A DNA stretch of 22,274 bases from Candidatus Hermodarchaeota archaeon (lineage in GTDB: Archaea; Asgardarchaeota; Hermodarchaeia; Hermodarchaeales; Hermodarchaeaceae): positions 1 through 22,274 of the forward strand of contig JAEOTO010000043.1 of assembly GCA_016839805.1 (NCBI GenBank). Reading direction: 5' to 3'. The notes under the pieces are model-generated. The model ran no database searches and was not told the DNA's origin. It saw only the letters and a list, made by a program, of their open reading frames with translations. Below are positions 11,421 to 22,200 of the stretch, in pieces; position 1 is the stretch's first letter, and each line of letters begins with the position of its first letter. A program made the position numbers and the translations under genes.

Positions 11421-11471
11421 CAGATAAAGGTATTTAAAGCGTCTTACCACGGTCATAATAGCGGTTTGGCG
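11421..11471 (+). promoter_or_regulatory. BRE-TATA promoter plus conserved transcript-start element of the giant surface-protein gene (copy 1)
   Basis: CAGATAAAGG-TATTTAAA-GCGTC, then ATAAT and CGGTTTGGCG (11462-11471). A near-identical copy lies at 22150-22200. Confidence 0.75.
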
Positions 11472-11590
11472 AAGGATATCAGCGGAGCAAGTTTCCATTT
11501 ACAATGCAAAATCAATTACCATGCCATACGAATGGAAAGGAGATCTTCTTTCGTTACACTGCGAAATCTACAGCATTAGAGTGGAGTTGT

Positions 11591-14500
11591 ATGAATCGTC
11601 GGACTCTTGTCTGTTTGAGCTTTTTAGCCGTATTCCTTTTTTCCTTTATTTTTACTTTGGATTCAGTCACGGCTGTGAATCCGATTGAATTGGATCAAAC
11701 ACCCTTATCTGGTTCAGATTTGAGCCCGGTATCAGCTGCACTGTCCTCATTACCTCCACCCCCTGCCGGGCCAACCTATTCTGATGGTCAATACCAATAC
11801 GAAGGACTAGGAACTTCTCTCACCACAACGGAATACGCAAAGGGCTCTAATCTTTCGCTTCAAGTCTCTGACTTTGACTATGGTGAAAATAGATATGGGC
11901 AAGTTCGGCTACCTCGAGGTTGGACGGGTTATCGTCTAGAAGCTGATGTATACAATCTTTATGACCAACCCTATTTCATTCAGGGTAATCGGGAAAATGG
12001 GAATTTTAACACTATAGGCGCCGCTTGGACGGCCCAGAATAATGGCATGGGCGATAATACTTCTAATCCATATTATGGTACTAACTGGGGACCTACCTAC
12101 GGGTATTCGGGGAATGGCGTTCAAACGTGGGTAGAATGGTGGAGTGGATGGACCTGGGATGTCAACTCCTATGTAGTTTGGATAAATCCCATTAACATCC
12201 TACGGGACGACCCAGTTTATGCTAAACTCACATTTAGAGTTAATGTGAACCTTCTGGCAGGTAGCAGCGGTGGCCGAGGCCGAATGGTCATCTATGCAGA
12301 AATCGCTGGTATTGTCTACCGGTTGCTATTGGATGAACATTGCCCGAATAATAACCAATGGTACCAATTGAGCATCTCAGTACCCTATGATGATTTAGAA
12401 ACCTGGACAGTGCCAGGAACCATCAATGTTCGGTTAGGCCTATCATTTACAGGCACACAAAGCGCGTGGGATTATGAGTACTGGGGACTTCAATTTGATG
12501 ATGTAACACTAGAAGTTCGAGGACTGGTCAATCCCAATGATACCACCTGGCTTGATTTAGTAATGAACTCCACAATCGCAGACACTGCTGGATACGGATA
12601 TGGATCTTATTCGCGAATAGGAGCTTGGGCAAATCCCACCGAAGTCCATAAACGAGTTGTAGCCCATTGGCAAGCCACTAATACTGACGCACGTATGGTT
12701 GGGTTCAATTACAACCTAACATTATTCATCACCAGAGACGCAACGACCGAACAACAGGTTGGAACAGACGGTTCCAAATTTATGGTAAGAAATAATTCAG
12801 CGGTGTATTGGACCACCTGGGTGTATGCTTATCAACCGTATTTCTTTGCGGAATACAACCTTTCCATCACTCGTCCCACCAGCGAAACTTGGATCATCCA
12901 TAAAGTCACTGATGCCCTCTTCACAGATCGAACCAGCGCTGTTACCACAACTTCAACGCACTTCGTGCTTCCAAGTTCAGCAATAAACGACGTTTATGGG
13001 TGGTGGAACTTCACTTTTACTTCCACAAATCGCATAACATCAATTTCAACAGTTCAACCAATCTATTACATTAACCCTCGAACTCCCAATTCCATTACAC
13101 TAACAACTAATTTTGGTACTAATGTTGGTGAGGCTAACTTAACCCTCTATAACCCCGATGGCGATGTTATCAATGAAGAAATGAAGGTTCTCGCTGGCAG
13201 CTCTGTTGACTTCGCGACAATCAACTTCAATAATGGCTCAAAATATGTTGCGGGTCTATATTCTCTCTGTGTAAGTTATGATAACGGTACAACTCCTACA
13301 CAAACAGCTGCAGGGTTTCTTTCTCATGAATTCATAATCCAGCATTCATCAGATTTAACACAAGAATCCACAAATCTCTGGGTGAGTTATGGACCAGGTT
13401 CTTTCTATCCACGTGTTGTTTATAATGATACGGACAGGCTACTACCACCCTTTAATGTAGAGGAGGCTACAGTAACAGGTACAATTTCTGGGAATCCTGT
13501 AACATTCTATGAAGCTGGTGGCAGGTATGAAGCACAAATTGCCAATGACTTGTTAATTCCTGGTAATTACACTTTGAACGTGAACGCCAACAAAGTATAC
13601 TATGATAGTGATAGTTGCATAATCAACGTTTATGTCCGAAGTGACACAACAATAAGCTCTCCTGAATCCCCTGGACTAACCGTTCCATATGACGAAACTT
13701 TTGTAGTACAGGTCAATTATATCGATGGTTCCAGTGCAGGAATAACAGGTGCGAGCATATCTACACCAGGTTGGGTAAGTACAAGTGTTTTAGAGCTAGG
13801 AACCGCTGGTTGGTATAATCTTACCGTTGATACAACCGATAAGACATCTCCTGGTACTTATCAACTAACAATTAAGGCGTCAATGGAATATTATCAGAAT
13901 CAGTCGCTAGTTCTAACAATTGTTATTCGAGAAATTTCTACTTCAATCACCTATGACCCTCCAGGATCAGTACCTTGGGATGAAGACGTTGTTATTTCCT
14001 TTGATTTCGCTGTTAATGACCCAGAAAGCCAACATCATGGTAACGGACTCAGTAGTGCTTCTGTAAGCGCTCAACTCGATGGAAGCACGATATTTCCAGG
14101 GTCAGATTACATTTTAACAGATCTTGGGAGTGGACAATACACACTAACCATACTTGTATCAAGTGGAGAAATCAGCACCATAAAATCGTACACCCTCGTA
14201 ATTCAAGTGACTCCAGCAGATTCAAAATATAGCGATGCGAGTCGAACCATTACTTTCACTATCCGACCACTTGAAACAACCATTATTTATGATCCACCTT
14301 TACCAAAACCATGGGGTGAAGATTTAGTCATCATATTCAACTACTATGTCGATGACTCTGATAGTTCTCATAATGGTGAAGGTATCACAGGAGTGACTGA
14401 TATCACAGGTACAACACTTGATGGAGGTGCACTCCTCGGAGGTCAATACACACTTGTAGAGAACGGTGGAGGTCAATATACTCTTACTATCCTATATTCG

Positions 14501-17500
14501 AGTGGAAGAATTAGTAGTATCAAATCTTACACACTTCAGCTCTATGTTAACTCACCTGCTTCCGAATATTCCGATAGTAGTCGTCAAATCACTTTCAGTG
14601 TTCGCCCATTAATCATGCAAATCACGTTCGACCCAATTTCCACCACTCCATGGGGTGATAATGTTGTAATTGTATTTTATTATCGTGTTAGTGATACGGC
14701 TAGCAGTCAACATGGGAATGGTTTAGCAGGTGTCACGAGTATCGCTGGTTCCACGTTAGATGCAGTTGCCCTCAATCCAGTCGACTATTTGCTCATTGAT
14801 AACGGCGGTGGACAATACACATTGACTATACTCTATTCTAGTGGTAAACTTGACCTTATCAAAACCTACGATCTTGACCTTTATGTGAATTCACCTGATA
14901 CACAACATGAGGATGCATCTCAAAGTACTACATTTACGATAAGAACCCTTGCCACACAAATCACATATGATCCAGTGATTCCCGTACCCTGGAGCGAAGA
15001 TGTGGTCATCACTTTCTATTATACGGTAAACGATCCAGCTAGTTCTCAAGATGGAAACGATATCACTGGGGTCACTGCAATTACAGGCTCTACGCTTGAT
15101 GCAGTTGCACTCAATCCAGGCGACTATTCCCTAGTGGAAGTGGGAGGTGGTGAATACACACTTACAATCCTCTATTCCAGTGGTAGAATCAACAGCATCA
15201 AAGCTTATTCTCTCTTCTTATATGTCGTTTCTCCTGATGCCCAGCATAATGATGCATCTATCACATTTTCCTTTTCGGTTCGACAAATCCAGACCTTCAT
15301 TACATACGACGCAGTATCCCTCACACCCTGGGCAGAAGATATTGTCATCACCTTCTATTATGTCGTTAATGATCCCACTAGTTCACAGCATGGAAATGGA
15401 ATTCCTGGAGTTACAAGTATTGTCGGTTCGACGCTAGATGCTGTTGCATTAAATCTTGGCGAATACTCACTCGTGGATAATGGGGGTGGCCAATACACCC
15501 TCACCATTTTGTATAGTAGCGGCAAACTGGACAACATTCAATCTTATACTCTTCAACTCCATGTCGTTTCACCAGATACACAGCATGAGGACGCTACTCA
15601 GACAATCAACTTCACTGTTCGCACGCTTCTTACTTCGATCTCATTTGACCCTATTTCGCAAGTTCCCTATGGTGAAGACGTGATTATCACCTTTTATTTT
15701 GTGATTAATGATATCCAAAGCTCTCAAGATGGTTCGGGTTTGACGGGTGTAACATCCCTTACTGGTTCAACCTTAGATGGAACTGGCTTAGACCCAGCGG
15801 ATTATACACTGGTAGAAGTTGGGAGTGGCGAATACACCCTGACCCTCCTTTTCAGTAGCGGGAAGATCAATTCAATCAAAACATATACACTGGCTTTGCA
15901 CGTTGTATCACCAGCTGCTCAATATAATGCGGCTGATCGAACGACTACATTTATTGTCCGACAATTAGGCACCAAAATCTCCTATGATCCACCACTTCCC
16001 ACCCCTTGGGGGCAAGACGTCATCATCACAATTTATTATCTTGTTGAGGATACGGCTAGTGCCCAGCATGGAAATGGTATCACTGGTGTCACTAGCATCG
16101 CTGGTTCAACATTAGATGGAACAGCCCTTAATCCCAGTGAATATACCCTAGTGGAAGTTGGTAGCGGGGAATATACGCTAACCCTGCTTTATTCTAGCGG
16201 GAAACTAGAAAACATCAAAATTTACAACCTCCAACTCGTTCTTTTAGCACCTTCAGGTGAATATGCAAACGGAAACCAACAAGTCACGTTTACTATTCGG
16301 GCATTAACCACCCAGGTATTCTTCGATCAACCATCTCCAACCCCCTGGGGAGATGATGTGGTCATTATCTTCTATTATCGAGTAAGTGATTTGGCAAGCA
16401 CCCAACATGGAAATGGCATCACCGGCGTCACCAGCATCACAGGCTCCACCCTGGATGCTGTAGCATTAGATCCCGGTGATTACATGCTTGTCGACAATGG
16501 TGGCGGACAATACACCCTCACCATCCTTTACTCCAGTGGCAAACTTAATAACATCAAAACCTACACACTTTCCCTCTATGTGAATACCCCCCTCAGTCAA
16601 TATGATGATGCTTCCCGATCCTTAGATTTCGATGTCCGCATAATCGATACCCTCGTAACCTATACTCCCACTCCACCTGTACCCCGTGGAACCGATGTCA
16701 TAATCGTATTCTATTACACAGTTAACGATCCCTCAAGTTCTCAACATGGTAACGGTATCATAGGTGTCACCAGTATTGCAGGCTCCATGCTAGACGCTGT
16801 TGCTCTCAATCCAGCGGACTACACTCTAGTAGAAAATGGTGGTGGCCAATATACCCTTACCATCCTCTTCTCAAGCGGAAGGATCAGTTTAATAAAAACC
16901 TACTCATTATACCTCAACGTGCACTCGCCTGATGCACAACATGAAGATGCCTCCGAGAATGTTGGATTTGCGATTCGAACCATCCGAACAGCAATTAGCT
17001 ATGATGCTGTGGGAAGTGTTGCTTGGGGTTCAGATGTAGTCATCACCTTCTATTATATCGTCGATGACTCAGCTAGTGGAGAAGACGGAAATGGAATAGC
17101 AGGTGTCACCAGCATCGCTGGCTCAACCCTCGATGGACTTGGTCTCAACCCAGCTGACTACTTGCTTGTTGACGATGGTGGTGGCCAATACACCCTTACT
17201 ATCCTCTACTCCAGTGGTAAAATTGCCACAGTCAAAATATATTCATTGGCTTTACATGTGGTAGCACCAGTTAGTTATCATGAGAATGCCGACCAAACCA
17301 TCGGTTTTCGAATTCGTAACCACAATGTCGCCAGCAACATTGATCCCATTTCCACAATTCCTTGGCAGAACGATGGGACACTAATATTACGGGTTAACGA
17401 TGATGATGTAGGCACGCCTTTACCAGACATTGATATGATTGCCATCGAAATCATTGGACCAACAACTCTGTTTATTGATCACAACAACTGGAATACTTGG

Positions 17501-22072: not shown

Positions 22073-22079
22073 CCGAAAA

Positions 22080-22134
22080 GGGTTCCCTGTAGCTCCAACC
22101 CAGCACAGGGACCCGTCCTGTCTTTTCTTCTTTT
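22080..22134 (+). terminator. Hairpin plus T-rich terminator of the giant gene
   Basis: Bulged stem GGGT(T)CCCTGT(A)GCT-CCAACCC-AGCACAGGGACCC at 22080-22114, then TCTTTTCTTCTTTT at 22121-22134. Confidence 0.65.
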
Positions 22135-22149
22135 AGTTAGATGATGGTG

Positions 22150-22200
22150 CAGGTAAATGTATTTAAAGCGTCACTTCATCCGATAATCAACGGTTTGGCG
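22150..22200 (+). promoter_or_regulatory. BRE-TATA promoter plus conserved transcript-start element (copy 2) for the next downstream transcript
   Basis: CAGGTAAATG-TATTTAAA-GCGTC (21/23 identical to 11421-11443), then ATAAT and CGGTTTGGCG (10/10) at the same offset as in copy 1. Confidence 0.75.

Follow-up and report, generated by a model that had tools for sequence, protein, structure and literature searches.

The variable surface-protein families of Mycoplasma (vsp/vlp) and Plasmodium (the var genes with their upstream types) carry conserved 5' cassettes. Haloarchaea possess multiple TBP/TFB promoter classes of the 'alternative general factor' kind, and in Escherichia coli the ompA 5'UTR is a stabilising leader of an abundant surface-protein mRNA. 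In archaea, mtaA/mtaC are reported to have long 5'UTRs that make the transcripts more stable (PMC5378194). A literature search for an Asgard promoter with mapped elements found none. The locus described here comes from a Hermodarchaeum-type (Asgard) MAG with a genome size of 2.31 Mb (source assembly, G000); the window, 22,274 nt in length, is one entire contig. It carries two copies of a cassette that is an archaeal promoter specific to one gene family and maintained by selection; it is neither the motif of a large regulon nor a flanking repeat. We assign a probability of about 0.8 to the reading that each copy provides the promoter and the transcript 5' end for one of two neighbouring giant-paralog genes, with the cassette under purifying selection and acting as a 5' crossover point.

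A sequence-only reading had described a cassette of ~51 bp on both sides of a giant gene, and the repeat lies where it was placed. Positions 11421-11443 (CAGATAAAGGTATTTAAAGCGTC) and 22150-22172 (CAGGTAAATGTATTTAAAGCGTC) are identical at 21 of 23 nucleotides, CGGTTTGGCG occurs at 11462 and 22191, in both cases 41 nt from the block start, and GAT comes 3 nt after it in each copy. The ~51-bp block is real, and homology reaches ~20 nt further upstream, beyond the limits given. The ATAAT motif is indeed present in both spacers, but it is not conserved in relatives. The module spans ~70 nt: an upstream element is followed by CAG-N-TAAA, TWTTTAA and a G/A-CG-YY block, then by 18 nt of variable spacer, and (C)GGTTTGGCG lies near +1. 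Across the 15 instances of the cassette alignment (A2), CAG, TAAA, T.T.TAA, CG and GGT are invariant and the spacers are unconserved.

All elements of both copies lie on the forward strand. Copy 1 begins with the upstream element AATTGAATAA (11402-11411, about -61 to -52), which is of the 'U-A' type common to the slot-A copies of relatives G013, G007, G014 and G006. Alignment A2 shows little or no variation in its columns T3, T4, T8 and A9, and it is a weakly supported candidate for a functional element. The extended BRE (CAG-A-TAAA-GG, 11421-11430, about -42 to -33; CAG and TAAA invariant in 15/15) is followed by the TATA box TATTTAAA (11431-11438, centre about -28; T-x-T-T-T-A-A invariant or nearly so) and by a GCGTC block (11439-11443), whose CG is invariant in 15/15 and with which conservation to the closest relative ends, as described below. 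The variable 18-nt spacer (11444-11461) has no conserved columns except weak CCG and AGTAG. In the +1 block (11462-11471) GGT is invariant and TT-G nearly so; the predicted start is G11463 (+/-3). A predicted 128-nt leader (11463-11590), in which GGAG (11583-11586) is separated from the ATG by 4 nt, leads into giant gene A (11591-22072, 3,493 aa), the start of which was set by the signal-peptide alignment of 16 paralogs. Downstream of its stop codon (22070-22072) the terminator occupies 22080-22134, with a hairpin at 22080-22114 (fold -21 kcal/mol, z -2.3) and a T-rich tract to 22134; the 16-nt gap reported between terminator and copy 2 was found as well, and T-rich tracts adjoin the downstream cassette in relatives also. 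Copy 2 consists of the 'U-B' upstream element TTTTAGTTAGATGATGGTG (22131-22149; a TTTGTTTAGAYAA-like form in 10 instances), extended BRE (22150-22159), TATA box (22160-22167, again TATTTAAA), GCGTC block (22168-22172) and +1 block (22191-22200, predicted start G22192). Model R1, which had copy 2 within its training set, matched it at 22132-22202 with an E value of 2.6e-16. The leader of gene B (22192-22274) ends with the contig; no long ORF starts within it, and the ATG is expected ~30-52 nt past the contig end. A unitig of the source run extends 89 nt beyond 22274. On the other side of the locus, a divergent neighbour gene on the reverse strand (10573-11259, 228 aa, with a Zn module and an alpha/beta domain) and a longin-type gene (8033-10195) form the synteny anchor of 'slot A'. 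The former is 68-88% identical and directly 5' of the first cassette in seven relatives (tblastn), and the latter is syntenic in eight relatives with a cassette-bearing contig.

The repeat exceeds chance, as GTATTTAAAGCGTC is found at two places only in the 2.31-Mb genome, even with one mismatch allowed, and the combined pattern gives two matches compared to zero for a reversed control. The genome holds seven exact copies of CGGTTTGGCG, among which only the two of the window stand in cassette context; the combination CAG-N-TAAA..TATTTAAAGCGTC is unique to the cassette within the genome. Both copies show the features of an archaeal core promoter: a TATA box, in a host with at least three TBP and at least seven TFB genes, an (A/G)TAAA(G/T)G BRE directly 5' of it, and constant position and orientation. 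TATA-like sequence is a generic upstream signal in this genome, where TTTAAA, TTTATA and TATATA are the hexamers most enriched 5' of ORFs. In each cassette CAG-N-TAAA is the extended BRE and TWTTTAA the TATA box, and the CG block is specific to the family. The probable transcription start is the G of CGG, ~28 nt from the centre of the TATA box (positional, +/-3 nt), giving a leader of 112-134 nt that begins GGUUUGGCG. This distance fits the archaeal rule as given in PMC8553660 and PMC5378194. The proposed dedicated promoter class, with BRE/TATA and a conserved block at about +1 serving paralogous giant surface proteins with signal peptides, is supported. So is the claim of selection rather than recent duplication, since the blocks are kept across at least nine species while the spacers are scrambled. 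In a strain ~5% diverged in the leader, no change fell within 11421-11471 among the differences listed. The gene family was probably duplicated together with its cassette, which purifying selection has held while spacers, leaders and ectodomains diverged.

The distribution of the cassette was assessed by scanning 19 family genomes in full with model R1. This search of related genomes, which had been suggested beforehand, yielded 16 copies, at most two per genome. The downstream genes are not unrelated: 15 of the 16 copies and one metagenome copy, that is, all with an assembled downstream gene, precede a giant type-I paralog bearing a signal peptide. The distance from +1 block to signal-peptide ATG is 112-134 nt on the same strand in 15/15 instances with a visible start. 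An IUPAC pattern of the cassette scanned against 185,579 species genomes gave nine matches in the genus plus two chance matches, and against JGI metagenomes eight real matches plus two chance matches. The expectation of a tandem array or regulon of giant surface proteins was therefore confirmed in one part only. The genes are paralogous and usually in tandem, but the maximum of two copies per genome, with none elsewhere, speaks against a broad regulon or long array, and the suggested coordinated or mutually exclusive expression is speculative. A regulon-wide promoter or operator motif was likewise rejected, as the 19 genomes hold no more than two matches each, and each match with an assembled downstream gene precedes the same gene family. 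Genome G012 carries a pair of the genes and two cassettes; gene B is followed by an opposite-strand gene and by no further cassette. In G006, G007, G012 and G014 the copy corresponding to copy 2 precedes a second giant paralog. A second giant-gene family of the genus carries a related but distinct homologous cassette (CAGG-T/A-AAAT-NN-ATTTAAA), which precedes one or two genes; this is a new finding, and both families share an invariant CAG 5' of the BRE. The product of gene A starts with a signal peptide and has a ~3,200-aa ectodomain with repeats of ~120 aa. Hydropathy analysis places a single TM helix at aa 3216-3247, and 245 aa form the cytoplasmic tail. Between paralogs whose heads are only 30-40% identical, tail identity is 55-85%.

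The +1 block may be conserved mainly because it pairs, as the 5' strand of a long-range helix, with a stretch located 20-35 nt before the ATG. The leader would be closed by this helix, which could serve to protect or tune a 10-kb mRNA. In the leader of gene A, the predicted MFE fold pairs 11463-11476 with 11547-11560 (nt 1-14 with 85-98), the whole fold being no better than shuffles (z only -0.8). The leader set has 16 members, and the register of the helix differs by leader subgroup, with structures derived and tested on the same sequences. In the alpha group (n=6) 11 pairs are 89% paired compared to 25-45% with the partner slid; three pairs changed on both sides, and covariation is 0.333 versus 0.215 in shuffles (1/500). 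In the beta group (n=6) 14 pairs are 95% paired compared to 48-68% when slid. Changes on both sides are confined there to one cell of one pair, no better than shuffles, so that conservation of two DNA sites would produce the same pattern. Cognate 5'/3' duplexes average -18.0 kcal/mol versus -15.0 for non-cognate ones (permutation p<1e-4). RNAalifold over all 16 leaders jointly returned no common structure, and no Rfam family matched the leader. The +1 block probably pairs with the segment just 5' of the ribosome-binding site, a result that is new here and of moderate support.

The suggestion that the repeats might bound exchanged cassettes gained support from the comparison of species. Up to GCGTC (11443) identity to the closest relative is 74-92%, and directly beyond it drops to 34-56%; for G000 and G013 the values are 84% (11394-11443) and 36% (11444-11493). 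Head types H1-H4 are found in either slot, depending on the species. This drop and the shuffling of heads between slots indicate that the cassette is a recombination boundary, and both the homology break inside the cassette and this role are new here. A second class of breakpoints lies at the leader/signal-peptide junction. The locus changes fast and keeps few stretches constant; the cassette, being one of these, probably also serves as the 5' crossover point for whole-gene exchange.

The conservation of the +1 block might alternatively reflect a DNA operator, perhaps including the CG block, by which a dedicated regulator, bound over the start site, switches both giant genes together while RNA pairing is incidental. 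Archaeal regulators typically bind beside or over core promoter elements (PMC12993045), the CG block at about -23/-22 is invariant though unable to act as RNA, +1 lies in many copies within a weak dyad, GTAGC-GGTTTG-GC(G/T)AC (TAGC-N6-GCTAC in the second family), and the beta-group helix, with one cell of covariation, does not exceed shuffles. However, the left dyad arm is poorly conserved, CGGTTTGGCG is found at no other promoter of this genome, and the complementary segment before the Shine-Dalgarno sequence is conserved as well, with +1 variants matched by pair-preserving states. The A/G changes opposite U among these matched variants matter only on the RNA strand. There is also no linked regulator gene, the divergent neighbour lacking a DNA-binding signature in Pfam, and we regard an operator as possible but doubtful. 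The extended BRE and the CG block could instead mark a class read by one TFB/TBP paralog, forming a small 'alternative general factor' regulon. The many TFB and TBP genes of this genome agree with this, as does the CAG, which never varies in the two giant-gene families, whereas the remaining upstream regions of G000 with a TATA box lack it. Yet any particular TFB partner is hypothetical, shared promoter ancestry explains the CAG equally well, and such a class would hold only two to four genes per genome; we regard this explanation as rather unlikely.

That the repeats are primarily recombination sites delimiting mobile gene cassettes, integron-like or phase-variation-like, and not promoters, would agree with the break at 11443/11444 within the cassette and with H1-H4 heads in either slot across species. 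But there are as many cassettes as genes, the last gene being followed by none, the cargo never departs from one gene family, and the constant ATG distance and BRE/TATA anatomy are those of a promoter. The second breakpoint class is as expected from ordinary homologous recombination at conserved stretches. No inverted repeats were found flanking either copy, no recombinase domain among the nine window ORFs scanned with Pfam, and no excision joint, inverted or joined form in DNA contigs, the last being weak evidence. We consider such sites improbable; an integron-like or cassette-array site was rejected on the evidence of G012 and of the uniform cargo. An invertible or phase-variable promoter was likewise dismissed, the spacers of both copies being free of homopolymers and short tandem repeats, and inverted repeats and a recombinase domain lacking as above. 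Finally, the similarity could be a functionless leftover of recent duplication or gene conversion, and a 14-mer core is indeed the same in both copies of G000. The blocks are nevertheless kept in nine species before proteins 30-75% identical, with randomised spacers, copy pairs within other genomes are not identical, and the upstream part resembles the corresponding copy in other species, not its own partner. The cross-species alignment refutes this explanation, which is left with hardly any probability.

In its predicted leader pairing, the cassette resembles the Lactobacillus slpA 5'UTR stem-loop (PMC10221546), where a long leader, here ~120-130 nt, also precedes a surface-protein gene. As in such stabilising leaders, the extreme 5' end is predicted to be paired and the ribosome-binding site lies outside the helix, whereas the computed archaeal pairing is a distant one (a panhandle closing ~80-90 nt) and not a local hairpin. 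With the core promoters of Sulfolobus, methanogens and haloarchaea the cassette shares an A/T-rich 8-mer ~28 nt before the inferred start, a purine-rich RTAAA directly upstream of the TATA box, a pyrimidine-purine step at the predicted start, and constant orientation and gene distance. It differs by three extra invariant blocks, CAG, CG and 7-9 nt at +1, in one gene family only. Many TFB/TBP paralogs and a family-specific extended BRE likewise recall the haloarchaeal promoter classes, but here the pairing of factor and promoter is only putative and the class holds two to four genes. Mycoplasma vsp/vlp and Plasmodium var genes are also tandem paralogs with mosaic recombination between members, in which a constant 5' region (promoter, leader and signal peptide) and tail flank a variable ectodomain. 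In contrast to these, no invertase, inverted repeats or homopolymer switch were found at the present locus, nor any sign of on/off switching, and exchange is seen between species, not within a clone. Speculatively, and with rather low probability, the cassette may be the constant 5' module, with dedicated TFB/TBP promoter and panhandle leader, of a recombination-driven two-slot locus (four slots with the second family) for giant receptor-like surface proteins, in which at least four ectodomain head types were moved between slots and species by crossovers at the cassette, the leader/signal-peptide junction and the tail. If true, a close archaeal relative of eukaryotes would have its own version of the surface-antigen design in which constant flanks enclose a variable core.

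The MAG to which the window belongs (2.31 Mb in 50 contigs, 86.7% complete) originates from marine sediment, and the window comprises its contig C35 entirely. The blocks at 11421-11443 and 22150-22172 are identical but for 2 of 23 bases, exactly as claimed by the sequence-only reading, and the spacing it described was likewise reproduced: CGGTTTGGCG lies 41 nt from the start of each block (+1 blocks at 11462 and 22191), followed 3 nt further on by GAT. Copy 2 indeed starts 16 nt after the terminator of the giant gene (gene A), which consists of a hairpin at 22080-22114 (fold -21 kcal/mol, z -2.3) and a T-rich tract 3' of the stop codon. 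The 14-mer GTATTTAAAGCGTC was located only at the two cassette sites in the whole MAG with 1 mismatch permitted, and the combined block pattern yielded 2 genome matches versus 0 for the reversed control; the 10-mer of the +1 block occurs 7 times in the genome. No Rfam family matched anywhere in the window. The start of gene A was placed at ATG 11591 rather than 11504, because an alignment of 16 paralogs places their signal peptides at this position. Its product of 3,493 aa has a signal peptide and an ectodomain of ~3,200 aa with repeats of ~120 aa; a single TM helix (aa 3216-3247) then leads to a cytoplasmic tail of 245 aa. The tail region (window 21100-22072) includes ERTAPTVLPP and two ELDKIPGL units.

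The archaeal framing of the cassette was appropriate, as the genome encodes both TBP and TFB. The hexamers most enriched upstream of ORFs genome-wide are TTTAAA, TTTATA and TATATA, and GAGGTG/GGAGGT peaks 10-20 nt before starts, which shows that TATA boxes and Shine-Dalgarno sites of the ordinary kind are in use in this organism. The TATA box of copy 1 is positioned at 11431-11438 and is abutted on its 5' side by a purine-rich TAAA element. Archaeal TATA boxes have been located ~28 nt upstream of the transcription start (PMC8553660), and BRE/TATA elements have been reported ~19-22 nt from mapped starts (PMC5378194). Based on this usual spacing, transcription is predicted to start at about G11463 and G22192 (+/-3 nt), so that GGTTTGG would form the first bases of the transcript. 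The family-specific parts are a CAG upstream of the BRE, a CG just 3' of the TATA box and the +1 block, none of which was found beside other TATA-bearing upstream regions of the genome. A generic promoter consensus was rejected, since a loose BRE/TATA composite had only 45 genome matches with unconserved flanks and CAG...GCGTC was confined to the window. Likewise, a bacterial -35/-10 reading involving ATAAT does not apply: the organism is archaeal, ATAAT is unconserved and copy 2 has no sigma-70-like sites.

A search with the first 1,000 aa of the giant protein against 40 relatives showed that orthologs and paralogs are present across most of the genus's genomes, frequently as a pair sharing contig and strand, and their upstream regions bear the same blocks. 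The cassette-carrying relatives are Promethearchaeota MAGs and include Candidatus Hermodarchaeum yapensis, a member of the same genus. In an alignment of 15 instances the columns TT..TA (about -60), CAG, TAAA, T.T.TAA, CG and GGT are invariant and TT.G nearly so; the 18-nt spacer is scrambled, and so are the flanks. A 73-position sequence model scanned across 19 family genomes gave 16 matches in 9 of the 15 genomes of the genus, with at most two per genome; it had no match in the sister genus, which bears the diverged version CTG-N-TAAAGCTATTTATAG ... GCGGTGGATTC. The sequence-only reading had proposed listing the genes downstream of the motif, and all 15 with a visible start are signal-peptide members of one giant-gene family, located at a cassette-to-ATG distance of 112-134 nt; the 16th match is copy 2 of the window. 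A degenerate pattern applied to one genome each of 185,579 species identified 11 sites, nine of them in the genus and two chance matches without the CAG context. The same scan of JGI metagenomes found 8 real sites (2 new) and 2 chance sites, but no contig from the window's own population. Genome G012 contains two giant genes and two cassettes, and its next gene is on the opposite strand with no third cassette; the element thus precedes genes and does not flank them. The blocks persist in species whose proteins share no more than 30-75% identity, with randomised spacers in between, which sustains the earlier view that selection and not recent copying accounts for the repeat. The cassette is a real, selected and lineage-specific module that supplies promoter and leader start to two giant surface-protein genes in tandem. 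As a BRE/TATA promoter of archaeal type that the paralogs have inherited, it is of an ordinary kind; what sets it apart are the extra invariant blocks, a probable pairing of the 5' end and its role as a gene-swap boundary.

A second giant-gene family of the genus, with 27-30% identity to that of the window, has its own cassette, CAGGAAAT-NN-ATTTAAAT ... GTCTAGCTAAGTGGCTACA. The pattern CAGGAAANNNATTTAAA occurs one to two times per genome in 11 of the 14 other genomes of the genus (controls 0) and has 0 matches in this MAG's assembly. Such cassettes are located at G012:C15 13928 and 21285, G003:C34 116296, G014:C3 39316 and G008:C2 41715 (loci L075-L094). As both families' cassettes have CAGG-(T/A)-AAAT-NN-ATTTAAA and GGC(G/T)ACA in common, the two promoters are homologous. 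Jointly they precede 2-4 genes per genome, all encoding giant surface proteins. The leader of the second family is short (~50 nt) and carries an AGGTGA Shine-Dalgarno site. The genome harbors at least seven TFB-type and at least three TBP-type genes (contigs C21, C22, C23, C26, C27, C42, C44; C4, C19, C20, C1), including two TFB genes side by side on C21, a large set for an archaeon with a 2.3-Mb genome. Because of this number, a dedicated TFB/TBP pair for the giant-gene promoters is possible, if hypothetical.

At the first giant-gene position (slot A) the order of a longin-type gene, a divergent 228-aa gene, the cassette and the giant gene is syntenic in 8 relatives. The divergent gene (10573-11259, minus strand) encodes a CxxC Zn module and a domain with RRFMERVLP, has no Pfam match and lies 142-325 nt from the slot-A cassette in strict synteny in 8 genomes. 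It was rejected as a candidate regulator, as no DNA-binding domain was recognized in Pfam. The longin-type gene was read through one in-frame stop (TAA/TGA) in G006:C28 18062-20206, G002:C139 367-2505 and G007:C39 6-1898, for which possible explanations are an error in sequencing, a pseudogene or a small intron.

In the closest relative, G013, the neighbouring proteins are 88-90% identical to those of the window, whereas the head of the giant protein shares only ~30% identity. At the DNA level the identity is 74-92% for 10950-11443, the end of GCGTC, and 34-56% from 11444 on, a stretch that also spans the non-coding leader. That identity drops so abruptly in non-coding DNA argues for gene replacement by recombination and not for fast protein evolution. 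At least four head types (H1-H4) are distinguishable in the ectodomains. Slot A carries H1 in this MAG, G006 and G008, H2 in G011, G014 and G007, and H4 in G013 and, judging from a 95-aa fragment, probably in G012; the second position (slot B) carries H2 in G006 and G012 and H3 in G014 and G007. Leader and head types are uncoupled, since MG71 combines a leader 79% identical to that of G008C64 with a head that shares 69% identity with that of G014C18, whose leader is of the beta type. The cytoplasmic tails are 55-85% identical across head types, whereas the heads of the same paralogs are only 30-40% identical. Conserved tails, shuffled heads and the break at the cassette show that the locus has fixed ends, formed by promoter, leader and signal peptide on one side and TM helix and tail on the other, around a swappable ectodomain, the cassette being one among the crossover points. 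The suggestion that the repeats delimit gene cassettes thereby gains partial support, but the process is ordinary homologous exchange and no site-specific system; no joint between the two copies was present in the DNA contigs.

The giant paralog expected after copy 2 (gene B, probably with an H2 head like its G006 counterpart) is not in the assembly, as the N-terminus of the downstream paralog of G006 matched only gene A in a whole-assembly search. Contig C14 was dismissed as the missing neighbour: its terminal 933-aa open frame is weakly giant-like, and the orthologs have 1,100-1,400 aa and reside at unrelated loci. Joining of contig ends with k-mers of 21-127 nt from the window end gave no linking contig. 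A unitig of the source sequencing run extends 89 nt past 22274, enough to reach the expected ATG of gene B. In the unitig graph of this run (X1), positions 22080-22140 show a two-variant bubble over the terminator (61-mers, depths of 3.8 and 3.45), and a separate low-depth unitig of the sample carries a third, alpha-like cassette variant (…CCGCCGTTCCTGTAGCGGTTTTGTGACAAC), which probably stems from another strain living alongside. These variants indicate that the locus is heterogeneous, through strains or paralogs, within a single sediment sample.

RNAalifold found no single structure for all 16 leaders together, but within each of the two main leader types, alpha and beta, it predicts a helix between the 5' end and a conserved stretch located 20-35 nt before the ATG. 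In alpha leaders CGGUUUGGUAC pairs with G..GAACCG in 11 pairs (89% paired versus 25-45% with the partner slid); three pairs changed on both sides, and covariation was 0.333 versus 0.215 in shuffles (1/500). In beta leaders GG/CC, GGCG/CGCC, CAG/CUG and GGAA/UUCC add up to 14 pairs (95% versus 48-68%). The +1 variants GGUUUAG, GGUUUUG and GGUUUGA are matched by pair-preserving partners, and own 5'/3' duplexes are more stable than mixed ones (-18.0 versus -15.0 kcal/mol, permutation p<1e-4). These samples are small and the structures were derived from the very sequences tested; the reading that the +1 block forms an RNA helix with the pre-ATG segment is given a probability of about one half. Two results count against an RNA helix: for beta leaders the covariation did not exceed that of shuffles (a single cell with changes on both sides), and the window's leader is folded no more stably than its shuffled versions (z -0.8). 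A DNA operator over the start would also account for the block and is considered less likely than the helix. A start-stop uORF was discarded, as the ATGTGA of alpha leaders is not conserved as such. In alpha and beta leaders (e.g. L026:720-740, L025:7985-8005) the ribosome-binding site is embedded in a short self-complementary word, CCTCGAGGTCGAT and CCCCGGGG(T), respectively; copy 1 of the window has a plain GGAG instead.

A literature search retrieved no study in which the elements of an Asgard promoter or leader were mapped. The cassette represents a lineage-specific promoter that is sharply delimited and whose blocks (extended BRE, TATA box, CG block and +1 block) are separable, and the genes it precedes are of special interest as they encode giant single-pass surface proteins whose cytoplasmic tails have conserved docking motifs. 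As an exchange point of surface-protein versions between species, it bears on cell-surface variation in sediment archaea. Furthermore, the leader that begins in it is a candidate structured 5' region of very long archaeal mRNAs. A paired 5' end stabilises the mRNA of the surface protein gene slpA (PMC10221546), and long stabilising 5'UTRs are known from methanogens (PMC5378194).
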